DNA of 64,000 nucleotides from assembly GCA_944391375.1 (NCBI GenBank), contig CALXTJ010000002.1, positions 82 through 64,081 on the forward strand, written 5' to 3'. The translations under genes were made by a program, and so were the position numbers. Positions 15,190-63,346 of this stretch are shown here, piece after piece. The DNA is from an uncultured Alphaproteobacteria bacterium. GTDB lineage: Bacteria > Pseudomonadota > Alphaproteobacteria > RF32 > CAG-239. Below the pieces are notes generated by a model. It saw only the letters and a program-made list of their open reading frames with translations. It was not told where the DNA came from and searched no databases. The stretch's first letter is position 1. Each line of letters opens with the position of its first letter.

Positions 15190-15345
15190 TGATTTTATCT
15201 AAGCCGTCCGCTTGCACTCACTGCGTTTGTTTTTCCTAACATCTATATTCTCCTTATGAAGTCTAAAACATTTCTCATATATTAAAACACATATATAAGG
15301 ATATAAACAAGCTCAAAAGTGTCCGAAGATGTCCGAAAGTGTCCG
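15190..15345 (-). repeat. decayed inverted copy of the 33700-33900 element (leader, 3 x GTGTCCGAA-type 10-bp units, and a truncated MLGKTN... 5' gene fragment)
   Basis: The reverse complement aligns with 33729-33900: CGGACA units, TTGTTTAT...CCTTATAT block, RBS AAGGAGAA, then ATGTTAGGAAAAACAAAC... (MLGKTNAVSASGRLR*). Confidence 0.6.
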
Positions 15346-15460
15346 ATTGTATGAATTTGGGCTAAGAGGTATTATACTGATTTGTTATAATTTTAGAATT
15401 TTGTAGGAAAGAACATTAAATTTCATTTTCATGGGTTTAAATCCCACACGGGCTTTAAGC

Positions 15461-15496: not shown

Positions 15497-15572
15497 TGGT
15501 GAGCCCGACGGGATTCGAACCCATGACCCTTTGATTAAAAGTCAAATGCTCTACCGACTGAGCTACGAGCCC
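15497..15572 (-). tRNA. tRNA-Lys (anticodon UUU)
   Basis: Reverse complement GGGCTCGTAGCTCAGTCGGTAGAGCATTTGACTTTTAATCAAAGGGTCATGGGTTCGAATCCCGTCGGGCTCACCA folds as a cloverleaf with TTT anticodon, GTTCGAATCC T-loop and encoded CCA. Confidence 0.85.
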
Positions 15573-25667: not shown

Positions 25668-26995
25668 TGCAACCGCTCAGTTCTTCAAAAATAGCCAAAA
25701 TCGTAGGCTCCCGTTCAAAGGTTATATCGGTAGAAATATCAGGCGTTTCTACCGATAGCCGCCGATGTGGTTCGCATGATGTCTTTATTGCCCTAAAGGG
25801 CGAAAAGTTTGACGGGCACAATTTTGCGGCCTCAGTCATCAATGCCGGATGTCCGTTGGTGATTGTTGACCACTTAATTGACGGTATAAATCCCGAAAAA
25901 CAAATTGTCGTGCCTGATACTTTACATGCTTACGGCCTGATAGGTGCCTATAATCGCTCGCTTTTTAAAGGCAAAGTCATCGGCCTGACCGGAAGTTCCG
26001 GTAAAACCACCACTAAGGAAGAATTGAAGTTTATATTATCTTTTTTCGGCAAAACTTACGGCAGTTTCGGTAATCATAACAATCAAGTAGGTGTTCCCGA
26101 AAGTTTGTGCAATCTGGATATGAGTGCCGATTATGCGGTTATAGAAATGGGAATGAGTTCCAAAGGTGAAATTTCCAAGCTTACATCTTATGTTAAGCCG
26201 GATGTTGCTTTAGTTACCAATGTTTATCCGATGCATATAGAATTTTTCAATAATTTTGAGGAAATAGCCTATGCTAAGGCCGAAATTTTTGAAGGCTTAA
26301 GTGCTGATGGTACGGCAGTTATCAATGCCGATACCAACTTTGCCGACATTTTGGCAAAGCAGGCCGCTAAATATACTTTTCATATAGTAAAATTCGGCAA
26401 AGATTATCTTCCTAAAGCAAATTTTACCACTCAGGAGGAAGGAGAACACTATCTTTATAATGCCTGGGCCGTATTAAAAGTTGTACAGGTTTTAGGCCTT
26501 GATGTGCAAAAGGCGGCAAGTCACATTAAAGATTTTGGTGCTTTGGAAGGACGCGGTAAACATTATCGGTTGCAACTGCCGGATAATAAAGGAACATACA
26601 CTTTAATTGATGACAGTTATTCCGGTCAGCCCGAAGCCATGAAGTTGGCCATAACCTCATTAGATAAAATGTCGTGTTCGGGCCGTAAAATTGCCGTTTT
26701 GGGTAAAATGGCCGAACTTGGCAAACTATCTAAAGAAAAACATACAGAAATCGGTAAGTACATTGCTAATACTTCAATAGACATAGTTATCGGGGTTTGT
26801 CCCGAGATGCAGGATATGTTAAACGAGTTATCGGTAGATCAAGAGCATTACTATTTTGCCGATTATGAAAAAGTTGCCGATTTCCTGTTAAATAAACTCT
26901 TGCAAAAAGATGATATTGTCCTTATAAAAGGAGCAAGATATTCTTCATGCTTGTACAAAGTGGCAGAAGAATTGAAAGAAAAGGGAAGCAAATAA
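25667..26995 (+). CDS. murF: UDP-N-acetylmuramoyl-tripeptide--D-alanyl-D-alanine ligase
   Basis: Mur ligase P-loop [13 protein letters not shown] plus conserved central and C-terminal domains. Confidence 0.8.
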
Positions 26996-27492
26996 TGAAG
27001 TGTCCGTTTTGCGGTTGTGACGATACCATAGTTAAAGATTCGCGAAATGCCGATGATGATACGGCGATTCGCCGTCGTCGGGAATGTCCGGAATGCGGCT
27101 CGCGTTTTACGACTTTTGAAAGAGTCCAGCTACGGGAATTGATAGTAATCAAAAAAAACGGAGAGAGAACATTTTTTGATCGTGACAAATTATATCGTTC
27201 CATAGAACTGGCGGTTCGCAAGCGTCCGATTTCCGCCGAGCGGGTTGAAAAAATAGTCAATTCCCTTCAACGAGGGTTTGAAAGCTCCGGTGAAAGCGAA
27301 ATTACTACCGAGGCTATCGGCGAAGCGGTAATGGATGCCTTGTCGCGTTTGGATAATATAGCTTACATAAGGTTTGCCTCCGTTTATAAAGATTTTAAAG
27401 AGATAAAAGATTTTGAAGATTTTGTTGAAACCATAGACAGACTGGCTAAACCGGCAAGTGAAATAAAAACAGAGGAAAGTAATCATGACTAA
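26995..27492 (+). CDS. nrdR: transcriptional repressor NrdR
   Basis: Zinc ribbon MKCPFCG...CPECG followed by an ATP-cone. The start ATG overlaps the murF stop by 1 nt. Confidence 0.85.
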
Positions 27493-33083: not shown

Positions 33084-33566
33084 TTATTCAATAACTACCA
33101 AAGGAGCACCATATTCTACCGGATCGCCGCTTTCTACCAAAATTTTGGTAACGCGTCCGCCCTTGTGGGCTTTAACCGGATTAAAAGTCTTCATGGCTTC
33201 AATTAAGCAAACTGTATCACCGGCAGCTACCGTATCGCCGACATTAACATAGTTTGCCGAGTTCGGATCACTTGACAGATAAACCACACCGACCATCGGC
33301 GATTTTACGGCGTCCGGACTGTTAGAATAATCATTTTCCGTAACCTTGGGAGTTTCTTTTTCCGGATCTGCCGGAGTCGGCAACGGAGCTGCCTGAGGAG
33401 CTACCGCTTGCGGAGCCGGAACATAAGCTGCGGCACTTACTCCGCCGATTTGACGCGATAATGTAATTCGGCAGCCTTCATCTTCATACTCAAGTTCGGT
33501 TAAATTAGTTCTATCCAATATTTCAGCCAATTTGCTGATAACTTTTGTATCAATGGGATTTGACAT
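33084..33566 (-). CDS. accB: biotin carboxyl carrier protein
   Basis: Biotinyl motif EAMKTFN, Pro/Ala-rich linker; lies upstream of accC. Confidence 0.85.
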   Translation of the reverse strand: MSNPIDTKVISKLAEILDRTNLTELEYEDEGCRITLSRQIGGVSAAAYVPAPQAVAPQAAPLPTPADPEKETPKVTENDYSNSPDAVKSPMVGVVYLSSDPNSANYVNVGDTVAAGDTVCLIEAMKTFNPVKAHKGGRVTKILVESGDPVEYGAPLVVIE

Positions 33567-33699: not shown

Positions 33700-33803
33700 T
33701 TTAGCGTTTTTTAATAATATAAAACAATCGGACACTTTCGGACACTTTCGGACATTTTCGGACACATTTAAGCTTGTTTATCGCCTTATATGTATTTTAA
33801 TAT
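33700..33803 (+). promoter_or_regulatory. regulatory element: leader TTTTTTAATAATATAAAACAAT + 4 tandem 10-bp units (CGGACACTTT x2, CGGACATTTT, CGGACACATT) + putative promoter TTGTTT-N18-TAATAT
   Basis: Units at 33729-33768. The -35-like hexamer starts 5 bp after the array, the same geometry as the cassette promoters at 42976 and 47502. Confidence 0.5.
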
Positions 33804-33844
33804 ATGAATAAAAGTGTTTTTAATTTTTGTAAGGAGAAAATTTT

Positions 33845-35764
33845 ATGTTAGGTAAAACAAATGCAATAAACAAGTTCGTTAGCGGCGGAAGCGGAGATGT
33901 CGTTCAAGCCGTAAATCTTACCGGCAATTTGATAAATGCCGGTGATAAGGTATGGATAAATCAAAATACACAAATCGCAGGGAGTAATTTTCAAGTTAAA
34001 ACTACTAATAGTACTGCTATTAACTCTTACGGATTTGTTATTGATCCGACCGGTACCAGAGCTTGGACTTATAATATAGTCTACGATATATCCTCATCTG
34101 AGGCTACACAAATCAGTACCACAACTAATGCACAAGTTGATGTTGTACGATACGGTAAAAACGGGGAAATGTTTTTTAACAATGTACGGTGCGATGCCGG
34201 GGCATATTACCAATTTTCCAATACAAGCTCTCGTTATGTTGGCGATAATTATAAAACCAATCCGACCAAAATTGGTGTTGACGAATTTGATTTGAATACC
34301 GGAGCGGTTTTAAACACCTATTTGAGTACCAATACTTGGGAATCCAAAAACAACTATTTAAGTATGATAATGAGGAACGGTAAGTTTTATTATTTTAATA
34401 CATTAACAAATGGTGGCGGTATTTATGAAATAACTGATAATGAATTTGTAAAAACAAATGACATATCAGGGTGTGATAAAAGTTTTTATATTATAGGTTT
34501 AACATCAGATGATAAATATTTAATTTATTCTACATCACCCATACCTGCACAACGTTCGGGAAGAATTTATTTGGCCGAATTTGTTGATGATTATACAATA
34601 AGAACCTTGAGTGATGATGAATTGCCGATAGATTTGCAACCTTATTTCTTGGATAGTTGTACACCAACATTCAATCCCAACAACAATGTTTTATGTATTG
34701 GAGCAAACGGAAGCTATATGTTTTTACAATATGCCAATAATAATTGGACTAAACTTAATATTGATATTCCCACGAGCAATATATATAGGACATTATCTAT
34801 TTCACAAGATTTAAGCAAAGTTGGAGTGGGTAATTTCAACGGTAGTTCCGGAATTGTCTACAATATTACGGCTCAGGACGGATATGTATTGCAGAGCTAT
34901 TCGCCGACCAGAATTTCTGCCAATTCGCTAACCGGATTTGCCAATGCCGATATTGCCAATTTTGCAACTGGTGAGATAAATACAGCCTTAAAAGCTCATG
35001 TCTCTTATCCCGAACCTGAGCCTGAACCAGGTACCGAACAGTACGAAATTAACCAAGATACCCAAGGAGGTATAGTTTTCGTCGGTGATTTACAAACAGT
35101 GGCCGGTCCTTACGGTAATACGGTTGCTCAAATAACCGATACGACTCGTCTGACTTTGGGCAATGACGGGGCAAATATTTTTGCGGGAATGTTTGCTGAT
35201 ACTCAAACTGCCGACTGTTTTCGAATAAAATTTAAAATGCCGCGTAAAGGCATAAGTTCAGGAGGAACTTGGTACGCCTTATCGGATAGTTTGTCGCAAA
35301 ATGTGGACAATCCCACAGACGGTTGTGTCCGTTTTGGTTTTACGGCTTCCTGGGATGAACAAAATTCTGAAATTGATAGTCAATTAGTATCTTTTATAAT
35401 GGAAAGATATTCTTCCGAACAGGGTTGGGAAACCCCAATGAGAGTTGTCATGCCTGATTTTAAGCTGAACACATGGTATGATGTTATGTATTATTACGGA
35501 AAATATGCTGATTGGGAAATTGAAGAAAACGGTAATAGCGGATATTGCCTGCTCATAAATGTATATAATGAGGGAGGAGAGCTTATAGGAAGAGAAGTAT
35601 ATGATAATTATCCCAATGGCAGTATAGTTTCAACCGAAAATGTCCAAATCGGATATCCGATATATGCAACATCATATTTTTATATTGATGTAGATTTATC
35701 ACAAACCGGTTTTCAATTACTTGACAGTTGGGTATGGCGTCCGGTTAAGGAAATCAACAAATGA
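33845..35764 (+). CDS. large N/T/S/Y-rich hypothetical protein (possible phage tail-fiber/receptor-binding-like or surface protein)
   Basis: 639-aa ORF with strong RBS AAGGAGAAAA. It shares its upstream element with the cassette locus; a decayed copy of its 5' end lies near tRNA-Lys. Confidence 0.4.
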   Translation: MLGKTNAINKFVSGGSGDVVQAVNLTGNLINAGDKVWINQNTQIAGSNFQVKTTNSTAINSYGFVIDPTGTRAWTYNIVYDISSSEATQISTTTNAQVDVVRYGKNGEMFFNNVRCDAGAYYQFSNTSSRYVGDNYKTNPTKIGVDEFDLNTGAVLNTYLSTNTWESKNNYLSMIMRNGKFYYFNTLTNGGGIYEITDNEFVKTNDISGCDKSFYIIGLTSDDKYLIYSTSPIPAQRSGRIYLAEFVDDYTIRTLSDDELPIDLQPYFLDSCTPTFNPNNNVLCIGANGSYMFLQYANNNWTKLNIDIPTSNIYRTLSISQDLSKVGVGNFNGSSGIVYNITAQDGYVLQSYSPTRISANSLTGFANADIANFATGEINTALKAHVSYPEPEPEPGTEQYEINQDTQGGIVFVGDLQTVAGPYGNTVAQITDTTRLTLGNDGANIFAGMFADTQTADCFRIKFKMPRKGISSGGTWYALSDSLSQNVDNPTDGCVRFGFTASWDEQNSEIDSQLVSFIMERYSSEQGWETPMRVVMPDFKLNTWYDVMYYYGKYADWEIEENGNSGYCLLINVYNEGGELIGREVYDNYPNGSIVSTENVQIGYPIYATSYFYIDVDLSQTGFQLLDSWVWRPVKEINK

Positions 35765-36048
35765 TAAAAATTTGCGGTGTAATTTTCGGCATTTTGGCAG
35801 TATTGTGCGTTTACCTTAATTTTAGAGTAGATGCACTCAAAGCACAAAATAAGCGGTTGATAACATACAACAATGCTCTAAAGATAAACTCCGAAAGGTT
35901 GGTGAAAAATGAGAACGAATACCGTATACAAGTTAAAACGCTTCAAGAGGAAATTAAAAAGGATGAGAGCGGTTTTGATTGGAATTATAATCTCAGTCGT
36001 AATCCCGTTCGTTTGCGGGTGTCAAAGGAATGTTTATCCTGTGATTGA
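35761..36048 (+). CDS. putative i-spanin (Rz-like): N-terminal TM plus coiled coil
   Basis: MIKICGVIFGILAVLCVYL TM helix then a charged helical region. Start overlaps the upstream stop (ATGA). An out-of-frame ORF is embedded. Confidence 0.3.
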   Translation: MIKICGVIFGILAVLCVYLNFRVDALKAQNKRLITYNNALKINSERLVKNENEYRIQVKTLQEEIKKDESGFDWNYNLSRNPVRLRVSKECLSCD

Positions 36049-36160
36049 GCCGATAAACTGTCTAAAAGAATGGACAACTCCCGAAGAGCTTTTATATTGT
36101 GCCAAAGAGTATGATATAAAGTACAATTCTTTAAGGCAAATACAAAATAATATCCGGTAA
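35963..36160 (+). CDS. putative o-spanin (Rz1-like) lipoprotein embedded out of frame in and extending past the Rz-like gene
   Basis: Internal Met followed by hydrophobic signal MRAVLIGIIISVVIPFVCGC with lipobox-like Cys, +1 frame relative to 35761..36048. Confidence 0.2.
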   Translation: MRAVLIGIIISVVIPFVCGCQRNVYPVIEPINCLKEWTTPEELLYCAKEYDIKYNSLRQIQNNIR

Positions 36161-36246
36161 GATGTTTTTTTATGTAACTTGCCTGAAAAAACAAGCTCCC
36201 GTGTTAGTCACCGGAGCTTGTTTTAATTGATTAACCGATAAAGGAA

Positions 36247-41567: not shown

Positions 41568-41600
41568 GATACCCGGCGTAAAACGTCGGATATCTTTTTT
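41568..41600 (+). terminator. intrinsic terminator (AGATACCCGGCG-loop-CGTCGGATATCT + T6) immediately before RBS of 41623 gene
   Basis: Imperfect 12-bp stem plus T-run. Confidence 0.45.
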
Positions 41601-41622
41601 AATTTAATGAAAGGAAAAAATT

Positions 41623-42171
41623 ATGACAAATAAAAAATATAATCCATTTGCGGATATGTATAACTTCAATGCTAACAGCAGTAACTGGGTACAAAGGTTA
41701 GGGCATAATGCGGACTTTTATAATAATCCGCTGGGTTACAACAGCTCACCCACCCCCAGACCTTATGACAACACAACTGCCTCTGGTATAAATAACAGCT
41801 TTAATATCAATAACCGGCAGCCGTCTTCAAGCGGATTGGAAAGTTACAATCAACCTCAAAAGCAGCAGTATACTAGCCCTAAAGTAAAACCCTTTACTTC
41901 ATGGGATATTGCTTTATCAGCTCTTGAAGGATTTGGAGAGGGAGCAGTCGGCGGAATAGAACGAGATCTAAATACATCATCAAAAGGATTATATGATTTG
42001 GGTAGTGATCTTTTTTTTGACGGAAGCTATGAAAAAAGGCAAAAAGAACTTGAAAAACTGGCTCACGAAGCAAATTTGGATAAATTATACAAATATTCAA
42101 ACTATATTATAGATAACTCAATTGAGTATTTAATAAAATATATGTTTATAAAAAATCTGGGAATTTTCTGA
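41623..42171 (+). CDS. cassette protein A: conserved 48-aa N-terminal module (MTNKKYNPFADMYNFNANSSNWVQRLG...) plus variable C-terminal domain
   Basis: N-terminal 48 aa about 98% identical to the 47657 gene. Residues ~70-105 (SGLESYNQPQK...SALEGFGEG) are shared with the 46159 ORF. Confidence 0.5.
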   Translation: MTNKKYNPFADMYNFNANSSNWVQRLGHNADFYNNPLGYNSSPTPRPYDNTTASGINNSFNINNRQPSSSGLESYNQPQKQQYTSPKVKPFTSWDIALSALEGFGEGAVGGIERDLNTSSKGLYDLGSDLFFDGSYEKRQKELEKLAHEANLDKLYKYSNYIIDNSIEYLIKYMFIKNLGIF

Positions 42172-42845: not shown

Positions 42846-42970
42846 GGGAGAGGGAAATCGCTCTCAAAACGGACAAAAATGGCTTTTTTAATGACAAAAT
42901 CGGACACTTTCGGACGGTTCCGGACACTTTCGGACAGTTTCGGACAGTTTCGGACACTTTCGGACTGGAC
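42846..42970 (+). repeat. conserved leader (GGGAAATCGCTCTCAAAACGGACAAAAATGGCTTTTTTAATGACAAAAT) plus 7 phased 10-bp tandem units CGGAC(A/G)NTTT
   Basis: Units at 42901-42970: CGGACACTTT, CGGACGGTTC, CGGACACTTT, CGGACAGTTT, CGGACAGTTT, CGGACACTTT, CGGACTGGAC. Confidence 0.7.
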
Positions 42971-42975
42971 ATTTT

Positions 42976-43006
42976 TTGTAAAAAAAGGCTATAAAAAAGC
43001 TATAAT
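42976..43006 (+). promoter_or_regulatory. sigma70-like promoter TTGTAA-N19-TATAAT directly downstream of the 10-bp array
   Basis: Identical copy at 47502-47532. Confidence 0.45.
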
Positions 43007-43147
43007 CGTGAGAAGTTGTGCAAGCTGCTTTAAAAGAAAAGAGTGATGTTAAAAATGGTCGCAATACTATTGACAGTAGTTTAAGTGATAACTATGCTAA
43101 CGAAATAGGACGGCTGTTAGGAACAAAATATCGCAAAGGAGATTGTG

Positions 43148-43273
43148 ATGCTCTCATCCAACAATACATTAACAAAAATTGGTAAGTGGCTTATTGTATC
43201 TTTTGTTTTCGTTGCGGGGCTTGTGCTTACTGCCCTTATTAGTTTGAGCTGTGTCTACATCTTCAGCTTGTAA
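43148..43273 (+). CDS. small hydrophobic peptide (41 aa, one TM) downstream of cassette promoter
   Basis: MLSSNNTLTKIGKWLIVSFVFVAGLVLTALISLSCVYIFSL; below the 60-aa ORF-track cutoff. Confidence 0.2.
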   Translation: MLSSNNTLTKIGKWLIVSFVFVAGLVLTALISLSCVYIFSL

Positions 43274-43314
43274 CAGGTCTATAAAATTGTTTGAGTAAAA
43301 CAAGGAGATTGCTG

Positions 43315-46062: not shown

Positions 46063-46180
46063 GAAATCGCTCTCAAAACGGACAAAAACGGCGTATTTAA
46101 TGACAAAACCGAACAAAATTGAACAATTCTGAACAAAATTAAACAAAAGTGAACATTTTTGAACAAAATTGAACAATCTT
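46063..46180 (+). repeat. conserved leader plus variant phased 10-bp array (GAACAAAATT-type x7)
   Basis: Leader GGAAATCGCTCTCAAAACGGACAAAAACGGCGTATTTAATGACAAAACC. Units at 46111-46180: GAACAAAATT, GAACAATTCT, GAACAAAATT, AAACAAAAGT, GAACATTTTT, GAACAAAATT, GAACAATCTT. Confidence 0.65.
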
Positions 46181-47371: not shown

Positions 47372-47496
47372 GGGATAGGGAAACCGCTCTCAAAGCGGAC
47401 AAAAACGGCGTATTTAATGACAAAATCGGACACTTTCGGACGGTTCCGGACACTTTCGGACATAATCGGACAGTTTCGGACACTTTCGGACTGGAC
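47372..47496 (+). repeat. conserved leader plus 7 phased 10-bp tandem units CGGACNNTTT, copy 3
   Basis: Units at 47427-47496: CGGACACTTT, CGGACGGTTC, CGGACACTTT, CGGACATAAT, CGGACAGTTT, CGGACACTTT, CGGACTGGAC. Confidence 0.7.
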
Positions 47497-47501
47497 ATTT
47501 T

Positions 47502-47532
47502 TTGTAAAAAAAGGCTATAAAAAAGCTATAAT
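47502..47532 (+). promoter_or_regulatory. sigma70-like promoter TTGTAA-N19-TATAAT, copy 2
   Basis: Identical to 42976-43006; lies 5 bp after the array. Confidence 0.45.
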
Positions 47533-47567
47533 CGTGAGAATTTGTGCAAACTACAAAATCTCACGAT
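47531..47567 (+). promoter_or_regulatory. perfect 9-bp inverted repeat ATCGTGAGA-N19-TCTCACGAT overlapping the -10/+1 region (operator-like)
   Basis: Read directly from the sequence. Only the left half-site is present in copy 1 (43005-43013). Confidence 0.4.
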
Positions 47568-47601
47568 TATATTTTAACTTAAACTAAAATTTTAACAACA
47601 A

Positions 47602-47632
47602 ATACCGAAGCTCATAACTTCGGTATTTTTTT
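47602..47632 (+). terminator. conserved stem-loop ATACCGAAG-CTCATAA-CTTCGGTAT plus T7, copy 2 (attenuator/terminator-like, directly before RBS of 47657)
   Basis: Perfect 9-bp stem plus T-run, between the promoter and the gene. Confidence 0.5.
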
Positions 47633-47656
47633 ATTTAAAAGAAAGGAAAATAAATC

Positions 47657-48379
47657 ATGACAAATAAAAAATATAATCCATTTGCGGATATGTATAACTT
47701 CAATGCCAACAGCAGTAACTGGGTGCAAAGGTTAGGATATAATGCGGATTTTTATAATAATCCGCTGGGCTATAACAGCTCTCCCACCCCCAGACCTTAT
47801 AAAATCGCCAGTAATGATATACCAGTGGTAAATAACAATAAAAAAGTTGATTACTCAGCTTATGGAGAGGGTTTTAGTAAAGAATTTATTGATAAGATGC
47901 TTGATGATAAACGTTTCAATAATATCATGAACAGTAGAGTAATAAATAACGAAGGTGGATACGTTAATCATCCTAATGATTTAGGAGGTGAAACAAAATA
48001 TGGGATTACTAGTAGATGGTATCCTAATGAAGATATAAAAAACCTAACAAGAGAAAGGGCTAATGCTATTTTATACAGAGACTATTGGCAAAAAACAAAT
48101 ATTCATCAACTTCCCGATGAATTTGCCGATATTGTTTTTGATGACAGCATTGTTCAAGGACAGCCAACAGCTATTAGAAATTTACAAAAAGCTTTGGGTG
48201 TTAATGATGATGGTATCATCGGTCCCAAAACATTAAAAGCATTTCAGCACCAAAATCACAATATTATACGAACAAAATTTATAAAAAATGTTAATGATGT
48301 TGAAAATGAAAATATAAAGAACAACCCTTCTCAAAAAGTTTTTGAAAAGGGTCATAGAAACAGATTTAACGCTTATTAG
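47657..48379 (+). CDS. cassette protein with conserved N-terminal module plus GH108-like lysozyme domain and PG_binding_3-like domain
   Basis: N-terminal 48 aa shared with 41623. GGYVNHPNDLGGETKYGIT resembles the GH108 signature (EGGYVNDPxDxGGxTxxGIT). C-terminal ...ALGVNDDGIIGPKT resembles a peptidoglycan-binding domain. Confidence 0.6.
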   Translation: MTNKKYNPFADMYNFNANSSNWVQRLGYNADFYNNPLGYNSSPTPRPYKIASNDIPVVNNNKKVDYSAYGEGFSKEFIDKMLDDKRFNNIMNSRVINNEGGYVNHPNDLGGETKYGITSRWYPNEDIKNLTRERANAILYRDYWQKTNIHQLPDEFADIVFDDSIVQGQPTAIRNLQKALGVNDDGIIGPKTLKAFQHQNHNIIRTKFIKNVNDVENENIKNNPSQKVFEKGHRNRFNAY

Positions 48380-58151: not shown

Positions 58152-58409
58152 ATGGATTTTTTAAACTTACTGGGAGCGATGTCGGGGTGTGCCTCAATCG
58201 TGTCTTTTTTGGCTTTAGTAATAAGGCTTGGGGAGTGGAAGGCCCGCCATGAAGAGCGATTGGCAAGCCAGGGCAAACGCATTGACGGGATAGAGATAAA
58301 GCAAGATTCTCTATCATTATTATTAAACAAAAACAACGAGATATTAGCAGAAATTAAAGTAAAAGTTGACTTAATGCACAAGGAAAAAAATAAAAGGAGC
58401 AAACAATGA
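58152..58409 (+). CDS. putative holin (single TM plus charged coiled-coil tail)
   Basis: MDFLNLLGAMSGCASIVSFLALVIRL TM helix, RBS AAAGGAGAGAAA, overlaps the endolysin start by 4 nt. Confidence 0.4.
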   Translation: MDFLNLLGAMSGCASIVSFLALVIRLGEWKARHEERLASQGKRIDGIEIKQDSLSLLLNKNNEILAEIKVKVDLMHKEKNKRSKQ

Positions 58410-58876
58410 TAGATGAAGAAGAAATCATAAGAAGATTGATATTACATGAAGGTATGAGATTGGAGGCGTACAAATGTTCCAACGGATATTTAACCATAGG
58501 CGTGGGCCGAAATTTAATAACCAATCCTTTAAGTAAAGAGGAACAAGAGCATATCGGAGACTGGAGCAAGGGAATAAGCCGAGAAGATGCAATATACTTG
58601 TTAAGGAATGATATTAAAAGACTGATAAGAGAGTGCCGAGAAAAAATAAGCTGTTGGAGAGGATTGGATGCGGAGCGAAAATATGCCCTTTTGGATATGG
58701 CGTTTAATTTAGGGATAACCGGCTTGTTAAAGTTTAAGAAGATGTTGCATGCGTTATCAATCGGTGATTACCGCGGAGCCGCCAAAGAATGTTTAAATTC
58801 CAAATACGCCAAGGATGTAGGAATAAGAGCGGTCAGAATAGCTCATACATTGGAAACGGGGAGGTTTGAAATATGA
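58406..58876 (+). CDS. phage lysozyme (GH24, T4/P22-type endolysin)
   Basis: EGMRLEAYKCSNGYLTIGVGRN matches T4L [21 protein letters not shown]. The catalytic Glu is present; the Asp20-equivalent is Cys. Confidence 0.7.
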   Translation: MIDEEEIIRRLILHEGMRLEAYKCSNGYLTIGVGRNLITNPLSKEEQEHIGDWSKGISREDAIYLLRNDIKRLIRECREKISCWRGLDAERKYALLDMAFNLGITGLLKFKKMLHALSIGDYRGAAKECLNSKYAKDVGIRAVRIAHTLETGRFEI

Positions 58877-59031
58877 TAAAGAAAAAAGAACATAGTTGTA
58901 AATATCAGTTACGAAGAGAAATTATTCATAAACTAAGTAGGTGGCAATTATTTTGGCTATGTGTGTTGTTTTTGGTGGTAATGGGAATAATCGGAGTTTT
59001 TGCCCCGAGTGCCATAATCGGAATTTTATAG
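58873..59031 (+). CDS. small TM peptide (52 aa) overlapping endolysin stop; possible lysis accessory (spanin/antiholin-like)
   Basis: MIKKKEHSCKYQLRREIIHKLSRWQLFWLCVLFLVVMGIIGVFAPSAIIGIL; below the ORF-track cutoff. Confidence 0.2.
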   Translation: MIKKKEHSCKYQLRREIIHKLSRWQLFWLCVLFLVVMGIIGVFAPSAIIGIL

Positions 59032-62603: not shown

Positions 62604-62852
62604 ATGGAAGATATATCTGCCCTGATTAAGGAAGCCAAGCCGTTATACTTTGCCCGCAAGCGTCGCAATCGGATAATAAAGGGAGCGATGGGGGTTATGG
62701 CTTGTTTTTTCCTGATTAACATATCTTTATTAAAGCCGCAAGAGGAGCTTTACGATTCGTGGACACAGCAGTTATACATAACGGAAAGCGGATCGGTCAT
62801 TGAGGATATGGGACTTCCGGTAGATGAATACGGATTATTGATGGTAGGCTAA
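62604..62852 (+). CDS. small single-TM protein upstream of and translationally coupled to the ECF sigma factor
   Basis: TM AMGVMACFFLINISLL. Its stop overlaps the sigma factor ATG (TAATGA). Confidence 0.3.
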   Translation: MEDISALIKEAKPLYFARKRRNRIIKGAMGVMACFFLINISLLKPQEELYDSWTQQLYITESGSVIEDMGLPVDEYGLLMVG

Positions 62853-63346
62853 TGAAAGACATTATAGCAGATAACAAGAAGTATATCAAATCCGTAATCA
62901 GAAAATTTACGGGAACGGATAACGAAGACATAGAGCAAGAGGTTTACATCAAGACCTGGCAGAATTTGCCCAAATACCGTGAGGGTGGCAAATTCAAGCA
63001 ATGGATATGTACCTTAACGGCGAATGTCTGCCGGGATTATTTTCGTTCCAAGAGCTTTAAGAAAGCAAGGCAGGAAGTAGGGGAAGAAAATTTGGAAGAT
63101 ATATATCAGGAAGGGGTTACGCCTGAAGACAGAATAGATTCCAAGAAGCGTCAAAAGATTATATTAAGGGCGGTAGACAATTTACCGAAGATATATCGTG
63201 AAGTGGTAGTATTATTTGAGTTTGAGGAGTACAGCACGGAGGAAGTGGCCCAAAAGCTAAAAATACCCACAGGTACGGTAAAATCCAGGTTATCCAATGC
63301 TCGCAAGATATTAAGTAAAGAATTAAGTTTTTTGAAAGGAGAATAA
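62852..63346 (+). CDS. ECF-type RNA polymerase sigma-70 factor
   Basis: Region 2 (EDIEQEVYIKTWQNL) and region 4 (YSTEEVAQKLKIPTGTVKSRL). Confidence 0.75.
   Translation: MKDIIADNKKYIKSVIRKFTGTDNEDIEQEVYIKTWQNLPKYREGGKFKQWICTLTANVCRDYFRSKSFKKARQEVGEENLEDIYQEGVTPEDRIDSKKRQKIILRAVDNLPKIYREVVVLFEFEEYSTEEVAQKLKIPTGTVKSRLSNARKILSKELSFLKGE

Follow-up and report, generated by a model that had tools for sequence, protein, structure and literature searches.

Receptor-binding proteins, spanins, and late-type promoters are each of a known kind. In the gene transfer agent RcGTA, the fibre, head-spike, and lysis genes lie in separate loci under one regulator. Two-component spanins occur in an overlapped architecture, as in P2 LysB/LysC, and in the embedded form of lambda Rz/Rz1; spanins are recognised by a partner with a transmembrane (TM) segment and a coiled coil, and by an overlapped frame. 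Staphylococcal phage phi11 Gp45 is a receptor-binding protein that contains a beta-propeller. BldC is a head-to-tail MerR/Xis-like winged-helix protein, and we know of no role of its homologues outside Streptomyces development. It binds 5'-CAATTCGGACAATTCGGACA-3' head-to-tail, tolerates variable repeat numbers, has its footprint at whiI between -50 and -80, and makes few base-specific contacts (PMC5859096). Among HTH_17 relatives, Xis, RdfS, and D29 Gp36 act from direct repeats to control genes of phages and ICEs.

We analysed a 64-kb window (the whole stretch of DNA at its full length) from an uncultured gut alphaproteobacterium, in which a 2.5-kb operon comprises an array promoter, a gene for a 639-aa protein, a pair of small genes, and a terminator. 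In our probable overall explanation, this is a single phage-derived operon in which an array-controlled promoter drives a receptor-binding protein and an overlapped i-spanin/o-spanin pair up to the terminator. What is unusual is that several fibre loci, capsid genes, and lysis genes are tied by one array despite intervening housekeeping genes. The features of the operon are the following.

33728-33767 (+): four direct repeats of 10 bp, TCGGACAYTT, forming an array that spans about -83 to -47 relative to the inferred transcription start
33774-33803 (+): weak sigma-70-like promoter, -35 TTGTTT (33774-33779), 18-nt spacer, -10 TAATAT (33798-33803)
33831-33836 (+): Shine-Dalgarno AAGGAG, 8 nt 5' of the ATG of the 639-aa gene
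33845-35764 (+): candidate modular receptor-binding (fibre-like) protein of 639 aa, from ORF, family, gene context, and model
33845-33969 (+): its constant 5' end, about 41 codons (MLGKTNA, Gly-rich stretch, first propeller strands), with an N-terminal motif conserved family-wide
33899-34930 (+): beta-propeller, about aa 19-362 (model pLDDT 90.3, pTM 0.87)
35036-35684 (+): all-beta C-terminal domain, about aa 398-613, after the PEPEPEP linker (low model confidence)
35685-35764 (+): constant 3' tail DVDLSQTGFxLxxxWVWRPVKE, whose stop overlaps the start of the next gene
35761-36048 (+): i-spanin candidate of 95 aa, with a TM segment (aa 1-19), a charged helical periplasmic part of 73 aa, and a C-terminal ECLSCD
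35909-36160 (+): o-spanin candidate of 83 aa in the +1 frame, with a basic n-region, a hydrophobic core, and the lipobox VCG/C
36188-36228 (unstranded): hairpin with a U-run, and an A-run on the opposite side (-21.5 kcal/mol, z -4.8, 0/200 shuffles)

The array units start at 33728, 33738, 33748, and 33758 and read TCGGACACTT (twice), TCGGACATTT, and TCGGACACAT (TRF: period 10, 3.8 copies, 92% matches), which confirms the four CGGACA-type units that the initial annotation had reported upstream of the large gene. The promoter proposed there, TTGTTT-N18-TAATAT, is also present. It lies below the threshold of the consensus scan because its -35 matches only 3/6 positions of the consensus, and we therefore call it weak. 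The leader of the 639-aa gene is unstructured (fold -3.1 kcal/mol, z -0.16). At the other end of the operon, the hairpin is likely a bidirectional intrinsic terminator, serving both the operon and the convergent DUF192 gene.

The window contains 32 copies of the 10-mer at no more than one mismatch, whereas shuffled sequences contain 7.3 +/- 2.6, and none of 100 shuffles reaches 32. The matches group into four phased arrays: that of the operon and those of three other places.

15222-15346 (-): relic of a second fibre locus beside tRNA-Lys, with three array units (15317-15346), the same promoter and RBS, and 12 codons MLGKTNAVSASG followed by a frameshift and a stop
42900-42965 (+): array of 6.6 units in front of a cassette-type promoter
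47426-47491 (+): array of 6.6 units in front of a GH108 endolysin gene (47657-48379) and the portal-capsid-tail cluster

The locus of the relic is intact in L380, with four units, the 632-aa P0013, and a DUF1353 gene. The species has at least three paralogous fibre loci, the array promoter being found also at loci B and C; the three have a common promoter, and at each of them 3-5 phased TTCGGACA units cover about -83 to -47. The promoter of the 639-aa gene recurs after the arrays at 15.3 kb, in L380, and in L381, and the array, promoter, and RBS are kept across loci and strains. Arrays before the endolysin/portal/capsid cluster are longer than those at the fibre loci, and the number of units at the 639-aa locus varies between strains (four in the window and L001, five in L002 and L003). 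In the arrays, the CGGACA core is more conserved than the T-tract, whose runs of T recur with a 10-bp phase. A sister species has an 11-unit array of a CGAACA variant, CGAACATTT, at the position equivalent to the array of the 639-aa locus, and more arrays beside its terminase and cassettes. The initial annotation had placed the operon and the 41.6-60 kb locus in a common regulon. This holds at the level of sequence, where the arrays are alike and placed alike relative to their promoters, and on this basis the dispersed loci are probably co-regulated through the array.

The 41.6-60.2 kb locus contains genes for an endolysin, a T7-like portal, a major capsid protein, tail proteins, and a lysozyme, with the phage structural and lysis genes at 47.6-59 kb. 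A related species with 90% RecJ identity lacks both insertions at these positions. These two observations support the proposal, made in the initial annotation, that the island is phage-derived. The element is found in the strains and in one sister species, whose equivalent element has an S24 repressor and a Terminase_3, and it is split by a housekeeping block from DUF192 to BOF. No terminase, integrase, repressor, or replication genes were found in the 64-kb window. The element may be a split prophage or a GTA-like domesticated system, the latter being suggested by its chromosomal phage-like structural genes and dispersed accessory loci that share the array. As in RcGTA, there is an alphaproteobacterial host with a chromosomal cluster of phage structural genes, and the receptor-binding and lysis genes are at separate loci with a shared control element. 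In contrast to RcGTA, which is siphovirus-like, the element is podovirus-like (T7-type portal); it is absent from the next related species at these positions, and its sister-species version retains an S24 repressor and a terminase as an ordinary prophage would.

The large protein of the operon had been described as rich in Asn, Thr, and Tyr, and it is: these residues make up 9.5, 8.8, and 6.7% of its sequence versus 4.8, 4.3, and 3.4% in the housekeeping proteins of the window. The protein starts with a short N-terminal peptide, which is followed by a beta-propeller; a PEPEPEP linker then leads on to an all-beta domain at the C-terminus. Modelling the full length gave a poor first result (pLDDT 60.6); the N-terminal 400 aa were modelled confidently as a beta-propeller. 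A beta-helix or a fibre had been considered for this protein, and neither a beta-helix nor a trimeric fibre was recognised in the prediction. The propeller model has no trimeric shaft and no coiled-coil stem, and Foldseek searches of PDB and BFVD returned generic 7-bladed propellers only (TM <= 0.47). Pfam and PHROG gave no match for the 639-aa protein or for 103 members of its family, and tblastn of two members against 50,697 phage records gave none either. The C-terminal domain had no PDB sequence match, alone or as a profile, and its homologues had no Pfam match; Pfam on ten long fusion proteins of the propeller family returned nothing useful. This C-terminal domain is an independent swappable module, also seen on unrelated N-termini. 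Since the propeller is generic and matches in Pfam, PHROG, and the phage records are lacking, we use the label receptor-binding protein candidate and not that of a named fibre family. If this label is right, the propeller would be the receptor-binding platform of a tail protein, as in phi11 Gp45. The two differ in that they are unlike in sequence and not closely alike in structure (best TM 0.47), the matches are of the seven-blade type instead of five blades, and the 639-aa protein has no coiled-coil stem.

The protein has neither a shaft nor a database sequence match, and its association with the virion rests on gene position in other genomes. The propeller family has 245 representatives, mainly 400-aa proteins. 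One member from a myophage (P0015) is encoded 3' of Baseplate_J, Phage_Wedge1, and a 392-aa gene, and 5' of a lysozyme gene, which is a tail-fibre slot. Another (P0004) follows an Mtd_N-like fibre protein, and a further homologue is found in a phage-like contig. In the window, the 639-aa gene is detached from the structural cluster. The propeller model, the homologue in the tail-fibre slot, and the Mtd_N-like neighbour agree with the fibre, receptor-binding, or adhesin nature initially proposed, and we think that the protein is probably a receptor-binding protein of the virion. Neither the family nor the domain that partners it at the C-terminus is in Pfam or PHROGs; both would improve the annotation of receptor-binding proteins in gut phages.

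Comparison of strains shows flanks that are 98.9-99.5% identical around a 639-aa gene of which only the interior is replaced (30-60% aa identity), the breakpoints of the replaced blocks being at 33969/33985, 34929, and 35685. The blastn identity of the window to L001, L002, and L003 ends at 33969-33985, the left recombination boundary, and the constant tail at 35685-35764 is the right one. The L001 allele has a different propeller and is 99% identical to the window from 34929 on. The fibre alleles are full-length and in frame in all three strains (639, 644, and 639 aa), with intact spanins, and the whole-domain replacements keep the reading frame. The gene has a constant, predicted virion-proximal end and variable, exchangeable distal domains. 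The two large domains would be exchanged independently by homologous recombination at the three constant segments, and the constant N-terminal peptide would dock the protein on the particle. We propose that, through this independent exchange, near-identical strains carry very different binding specificities. Mutagenesis of the DGR type was considered and rejected: the window holds no second copy of parts of the gene save the promoter and array, and the alleles differ across whole domains, not at adenine positions. A fixed-site receptor-binding gene that swaps domains among ~99% identical strains is a clean natural system for specificity exchange, here in an uncultured gut lineage.

The protein could also act off the particle, as a lectin-like adhesin or effector that is cellular or released and has no more than a domain in common with phage proteins. 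Its monomer-like propeller without a fibre shaft, the lack of matches in PHROGs or the phage records, and the predominance in the family of stand-alone 400-aa proteins, some in chromosomal contexts, would suit such a role. We consider it improbable, given that the protein has no signal peptide, that homologues occupy the phage positions described above, that the gene shares an operon with lysis genes and a promoter array with capsid genes, and that phage receptor-binding proteins characteristically combine a constant N-terminus with distal domains that can be swapped.

Downstream of the receptor-binding candidate, the stop of the 639-aa gene overlaps the start of the 95-aa ORF (ATGA at 35761-35764), an overlap with a TM plus coiled-coil ORF that had been correctly noted before. 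Residues 1-19 of this i-spanin candidate have a mean KD of 2.5, and the remaining part is 34% charged and gives coiled-coil-type noise matches in Pfam. The o-spanin candidate has its lipobox at V35-C36-G37-C38 (Cys38 codon 36020-36022), and its predicted mature form has 46 aa with three Cys and three Pro. Its start is placed at ATG 35909 because the internal Met19 is Ile in homologues. Thus, of the internal signal peptide and lipobox-like site first described, the lipobox stands, at Cys38, whereas translation would start at the upstream ATG and not at an internal Met. The ORF overlaps that of the i-spanin candidate by 140 nt and extends 112 nt past its end, so that the arrangement is overlapped, of the LysB/LysC type, and not the embedded Rz/Rz1 form that had been proposed.

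The spanin assignment itself is borne out by topology, frame conservation, gene position in a related phage, and weak profile matches. The +1 frame and a V-[S/C]-G-C lipobox are kept in four lineages, and all 11 nucleotide differences between the window and phage L377 in the non-overlapping o-spanin codons are silent (11/11), a pattern indicating that the +1 frame is under purifying selection. In every homologue tested, the i-spanin candidate matches PHROG phrog_739 (E 3e-4 to 0.03) and the o-spanin candidate matches phrog_4306 (E 1e-4 to 4e-3), weakly in both cases; both are Rz-like spanin families. In L377, the pair is directly 3' of a Hydrolase_2 endolysin, whereas in the window it comes after the fibre gene, with endolysin genes at 47.6 and 58.4 kb. 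Like two-component spanins, the pair has a type II membrane protein with a helical periplasmic domain and, as in overlapped ones, a small outer-membrane lipoprotein in the +1 frame that begins within the first gene; cysteines near the interacting ends and the lysis-cassette position in the related phage are further likenesses. The pair departs from known spanins in its weak sequence similarity (E 1e-4 to 1e-2), its short i-spanin (95 aa, with a 73-aa periplasmic part), the unusually long basic n-region of the o-spanin (~20 aa), and its coupling to a receptor-binding gene 11 kb from an endolysin. We are nonetheless confident that the two ORFs (orf95 and orf83) encode an i-spanin/o-spanin pair. 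They are translationally coupled to the fibre gene, and their predicted part in lysis is the last step, disruption of the outer membrane once the wall has been cut by the endolysin encoded 11 kb away.

The genes for T5 Llp and phi80 Cor adjoin receptor-binding genes. The window pair lies immediately 3' of such a gene and is translationally coupled to it, so it could be read as a receptor-masking or superinfection-exclusion lipoprotein of this type with a membrane partner, placed beside the receptor-binding gene that it would protect. This seems very unlikely. The lipoprotein is 95-100% identical where the fibre alleles are only 30-60% identical and, being near-constant across strains with divergent alleles, does not track receptor specificity. 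Moreover, the L377 pair follows an endolysin and not a fibre gene, a TM plus coiled-coil partner with an overlapped frame fits spanins, and both proteins match Rz-like PHROGs.

Another possibility is that a dead prophage is decaying here, with the operon and the 41.6-60 kb locus as its pieces, the shared arrays as leftovers, and nothing expressed. Decay would account for the missing terminase, integrase, and repressor (the sister species having an S24 repressor and a Terminase_3), for the housekeeping block within the element, and for the fibre locus that is already a relic. We regard it as unlikely, however, because the three strains have full-length, in-frame fibre alleles and intact spanins, the o-spanin substitutions are all silent, the domain replacements preserve the frame, and conservation extends to the array, promoter, and RBS.

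With its 10-bp period, the core TTCGGACA is the same as the optimised Streptomyces BldC site CAATTCGGACAATTCGGACA, its 8 bp being identical to whiI-opt (PMC5859096). The units, (C/T)TTTCGGACA, fit AATT-N4-C, with one repeat per helical turn and an A/T tract followed 4 bp on by the contacted C-G pair; the sister-species variant TTTTCGAACA retains the A/T tract and the C-G elements. This identity with the best-characterised BldC site links a family of Streptomyces developmental regulators to the control of phage-derived genes. Like BldC operators, the arrays are built of 10-bp direct repeats in which an A/T tract comes before the core; they also vary in unit number and lie around -50 to -80. They differ in being from another phylum, longer and more regular (up to 11 units), and targeted to phage-derived genes, in their strongly conserved core where BldC has few base-specific contacts, and in having a cognate protein that we infer, because no BldC-like protein is encoded in the window. 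A home-made HTH_17 HMM and a BldC query sequence found no BldC/HTH_17-like ORF in the window or in loci L001-L025 and L374-L377, and we therefore do not file the array as a proven BldC site. In the sister-species element, Pfam on the small unknown ORFs left the S24 repressor as the sole DNA-binding candidate; HTH_17-like ORFs are within ~2.5 kb of arrays in only some of the array-bearing contigs. That the binder is specifically of the BldC type is a tentative reading of the sequence.

In the mechanism that we consider most likely, a small MerR/Xis-like winged-helix protein of the BldC type would polymerise head-to-tail on the arrays, one protomer per helical turn, with the 33728-33767 array as the platform for one such multimer. 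The polymer would switch all dispersed loci on or off together, the -35 of the array promoters being too weak to fire alone. The proposed regulator would resemble the Xis/RDF-type winged-helix proteins (lambda Xis, RdfS, D29 Gp36), which are likewise small, build filaments along phased direct repeats, and also act on the transcription of genes of mobile elements. The sequences of their sites are unlike that of the array, and to our knowledge no regulator of this type drives late or structural operons through long upstream arrays.

The phased motif also turns up beside int, in the P' arm of a Rac-like prophage of E. coli, and 5' of a PrimPol-like gene in GC-rich phages, and because of these occurrences other protein folds may read it. 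Response regulators bind phased direct repeats abutting the -35. Such binding is also taken up in the discussion of PMC5859096. The arrays could accordingly be real control elements with another reader, be it an OmpR/PhoB-type response regulator, the arm-binding domain of an integrase, or T-tract curvature. The complement TGTCCGAAAG resembles a Pho box (TGTCA plus A/T tract), the T-runs have the 10-bp phase, the motif is used at the E. coli att arm, and no HTH_17-like gene is nearby. We find this less likely than not to be the answer, and less so than a BldC-type reader, because Pho boxes have an 11-bp period and the arrays one of 10 bp, the only site with a structure of such geometry has the same 8-bp core (PMC5859096), the CGGACA core is better kept than the T-tract, and the arrays are at promoters and not at element ends. 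Two other models were set aside: P. aeruginosa AlpA resembles Q and uses only one site, located between -35 and -10, and a reading of the repeats as multiple -35 boxes for an ECF sigma factor was dropped on visual inspection because there was no matching -10 at the right spacing.

When viral sequences were first scanned, the array pattern was loose and picked up unrelated CCAGCGGACA tandem repeats. Phased arrays occur in many unrelated phage and metagenome contigs (GC 0.25-0.73), at least 120 of them viral and at least 120 metagenomic, and the array-bearing viral loci have no proteins in common with the window. More speculatively, and with rather low probability as a whole, the lineage might carry a podovirus-derived, chromosomally dispersed, GTA-like or tailocin-like particle system in which a BldC/Xis-type filament on TTCGGACA arrays switches several interchangeable receptor-binding loci together with lysis and capsid genes, the arrays being a control code that is widespread among mobile elements but has so far gone unrecognised. 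An NrdR-like zinc-ribbon match was observed near the arrays in GC-rich phages.

The island lies in a window with a GC content of 0.385, from an uncultured gut alphaproteobacterium, and is laid out as follows.

33084-33566, minus strand: accB, left neighbour of the island
Starts at 33728, 33738, 33748 and 33758: array of four 10-bp units
33774-33803: promoter, TTGTTT, 18 nt, TAATAT
Right neighbours of the island: a DUF192 gene, then recJ

The promoter fell below the threshold of the consensus scan because its -35 box is too poor. The leader of the 639-aa gene is unstructured, with AAGGAG as ribosome-binding site (RBS), and is followed by ORFs of 639, 95 and 83 aa, in this order. An ATGA joins the stop of the first to the start of the second, the third occupies the +1 frame, and the island ends with a terminator hairpin (-21.5 kcal/mol, z -4.8) and a U-run. 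This succession of array, promoter, genes and terminator identifies the island, at the level of sequence, as a single operon some 2.4 kb long. With a transcription start near 33810, the array would span about -83 to -47. The features described in the initial annotation exist, and its reading was largely right overall. To it we add the fold (a propeller) and family size of the 639-aa protein, the finding that near-identical genomes exchange alleles by whole domains, selection acting on the second frame, whose architecture and start codon we correct, two more fibre loci under the same promoter, the array variant of a sister species, and the correspondence between the array and the BldC site. The components of the island belong to known kinds; the novelty is in their arrangement and control.

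The richness of the 639-aa protein in Asn, Thr and Tyr, from which a fibre, receptor-binding or adhesin role had been proposed, was confirmed (each about twice the local background). The protein matches no Pfam or PHROG family. A word-indexed search gave 12 relatives and a profile search across 1.84 billion representatives gave 245, most of them of about 400 aa and matching residues 1-390 only; a few bear the C-terminal 250 aa on different N-termini. The structure check, for which a beta-helix or a fibre had been envisaged, returned a beta-propeller for the N-terminal 400 aa (pLDDT 90.3, pTM 0.87, 103 sequences). Compared with PDB and BFVD, this model retrieved only generic seven-bladed propellers (TM ≤ 0.47). 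The C-terminal domain is predicted to be all-beta in the low-confidence full-length model, and no relatives of it could be detected in PDB or Pfam. Three relatives are informative by their context. P0015, with two tandem propellers, is encoded in a myophage of the same sample series, where it is preceded by Baseplate_J, Phage_Wedge1 and a 392-aa gene and followed by the lysozyme; P0004 comes after a 199-aa protein with an Mtd_N-like motif; and P0009 sits in a phage-like contig. Given these contexts, we read the 639-aa protein as a candidate receptor-binding protein of a phage-type particle, outside any named fibre family.

The same chromosomal locus was found in three other strains (L001-L003), with flanks 98.9-99.5% identical in DNA and 95-100% protein identity for AccC, AccB, DUF192, RecJ and both small ORFs. 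The large proteins of these strains share only 60% and 30% identity with that of the window. DNA similarity ends at 33969-33985 and returns at 34929 in L001, where the propeller alone is replaced, and at 35685 in L002 and L003, where the replacement takes in both domains. Three segments of the gene are constant.

About the first 41 codons: constant segment 1
TGFANADI...PEPEPEP linker: constant segment 2
Last 26 codons: constant segment 3

Because the window holds no template repeat for the 639-aa gene, we ruled out DGR mutagenesis as the source of the fibre alleles and read their differences as cassette-like homologous exchange.

The two small ORFs have the features of a spanin pair. The 95-aa ORF encodes an N-terminal membrane segment followed by a charged helical part with a terminal ECLSCD, and has homologues at 62-83% identity. 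The 83-aa ORF encodes a basic n-region, a hydrophobic core and a lipobox (VCG|C), leaving a mature protein of 46 aa. All homologues of the former match phrog_739 and all those of the latter phrog_4306 (E 1e-4 to 3e-2 for both families), both being 'Rz-like spanin' families, and in phage L377 the pair sits directly after a Hydrolase_2 endolysin. In this phage, and likewise in L374-L376 from the sister species, the +1 frame stays open and retains V-S-G-C; the internal Met19 of the 83-aa ORF is Ile in all of them, and its start is therefore at 35909. We tested selection on the 28 codons of this ORF past the overlap with the 95-aa ORF. The window differs there from L377 by 11 nucleotides and no amino acid, and from L374 by 8 nucleotides and one amino acid, a clear signature of purifying selection on the second frame. 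Translation of the second ORF, on which the initial annotation relied, is supported by these non-overlapping codons. Its proposal of an embedded Rz/Rz1 pair holds for the spanin-like nature of the proteins and fails for the embedding: the architecture is overlapped, as in the LysB/LysC type. The 83-aa lipoprotein stays invariant between strains with different fibre alleles, and this makes a receptor-masking role for it unlikely.

A phage-like gene cluster lies further along the window.

47.6-59 kb: phage-like gene cluster, containing
a GH108 endolysin
a T7-type portal
a major capsid protein
tail-like and internal-virion-like proteins
a fibre-like protein
a phage lysozyme

The phage-like region stops at about 60.2 kb, ahead of UDP-glucose dehydrogenase, and the 64-kb window contains no terminase, integrase or replication gene. 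The sister species has a contiguous order of accC, accB, array, 414-aa fibre, spanins, PLD, S24 repressor, DUF6362, Terminase_3, array, further genes and cassettes; its repressor, terminase and PLD genes have no match in the window. A species with 90% RecJ identity keeps the block from DUF192 to BOF and lacks both the island and the cassette locus (41.6-60 kb in the window). Taken together, this contiguity and this absence make the element look like a prophage-type insertion, divided by a housekeeping block in this lineage. Within it, the leader and about the first 48 codons of the 41623 gene (41582-41776) resemble those of the 47657 endolysin gene (47621-47800). Both 5' ends have about 70% translated identity (tblastx) to the same L374 stretch, and in L002 the allele of the 41.6-kb gene shares 89% nucleotide identity with 47616-47800; this similarity marks a common 5' module in different cassette genes. 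The myophage with the double-propeller fibre (L024 6971-10394, and L025) has a lysozyme and a 77-aa ORF in common with the window cluster (58388-59031; 63% and 68% amino acid identity), which suggests that free phages have exchanged genes with the chromosomal element. We also noted a 212-bp tandem repeat in the element of the sister species, flanked by PLD and the S24 repressor (L374 7822-8328; 2.4 copies, 95% matches), and an ECF-type sigma factor gene (62852-63346) 2.7 kb past the right end of the phage-like region, for which we found no link to the arrays.

Two further fibre loci share the promoter of the island. The first is represented in the window by a remnant.

15222-15346, minus strand: locus B relic, with three array units (15317-15346), promoter, RBS and 12 codons

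It adjoins tRNA-Lys (15497-15572) and has the promoter and RBS of the island, followed by only 12 codons, MLGKTNAVSASG. At the same site, between tRNA-Lys and DUF179, another strain (L380) has an intact locus with four units, a full 632-aa paralogue (P0013) and a DUF1353 gene, and we read the window copy as a relic left by deletion. A third paralogue (P0014) and a DUF1353 gene adjoin BOF in L381, and the cassette locus of the window starts at the position of P0014; this contig begins inside the array, with the same promoter next. The promoters of the three fibre loci match, which identifies them by sequence as one common type. The DUF1353 gene (about 110 aa) directly follows the fibre paralogues (L380 5901-6233, L381 2031-2363, and L021 11203-11532 in another species), where it holds the place of the spanin pair in the island. 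Upstream of the relative in that other species (P0005; L021 9760-9860) there is no CGGACA array; two copies of the 15-mer GGCGTGACGGGGAAG, spaced by 60 bp, are found there instead.

The array varies in length: four units in the window and L001 and five in L002 and L003 at the island, three or four at locus B, and 6.6 at both 42.9 kb and 47.4 kb. The sister species has 11 units with the core CGAACA instead of CGGACA, at the same period and position. Place and phase kept with one core base changed are the pattern expected of a site co-evolving with a protein binder. A further seven-unit 10-bp array in the window (46103-46176; core TGAACA/CGAACA; TRF: ACAAAAYTGA) resembles this variant and has the upstream box of the other cassette arrays, with no obvious promoter downstream. 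Downstream of the cassette-type array promoters lies a conserved leader (window 42966-43290 and 47492-47656; L374 11618-11850 and 16250-16420), which the fibre-type promoter lacks. It combines a strong 5' hairpin with a terminator-like hairpin and U-run just 5' of the RBS (-31.3 kcal/mol, z -6.7), suggesting antitermination or attenuation control added to that of the array.

When we searched full texts with the array 8-mer, Schumacher et al. 2018 ranked first. BldC is a 68-residue MerR-like protein, related to Xis in structure, that binds head-to-tail on 5'-CAATTCGGACAATTCGGACA-3', recognises an A/T tract together with a C-G pair 4 bp downstream of it, copes with variable repeat numbers, and protects -50 to -80 at whiI (PMC5859096). 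The description of its site fits the units of the window, and the core is identical. Its wHTH relatives RdfS, D29 Gp36, Xis and Apl act on promoters of mobile elements. Neither the window nor any of the related loci searched yielded a BldC-like protein. We consider a protein-bound, co-regulatory array probable, and a BldC-type protein as its binder a tentative proposal.

In exact scans, at least 120 viral contigs and at least 120 metagenomic contigs (GC 0.34-0.73) contained the phased motif; for the latter, the pattern comprised 21 specified bases and three or more units. Phased TTCGGACA repeats, 2-7 units long, are thus present in many unrelated viral and metagenome contigs (loci L026-L373; GC 0.25-0.73). 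In E. coli (L378 3501-3648) the motif lies in the P' (att) arm, immediately beyond int in a Rac-like prophage; in GC-rich phages it is directly upstream of a PrimPol-like gene; in a group with GC 0.42-0.46 it abuts the start codons of small genes; and it is also found directly upstream of other genes. Such varied settings characterise it, on sequence, as a recurrent mobile-element feature, and it may be read by proteins of more than one type. No more than 2.5 kb from their arrays, 27 viral loci (GC-rich, e.g., L156 2928-3221) have small ORFs similar to the NrdR zinc ribbon, with 53% identity over 47 aa to the NrdR of the window (26947-27492).
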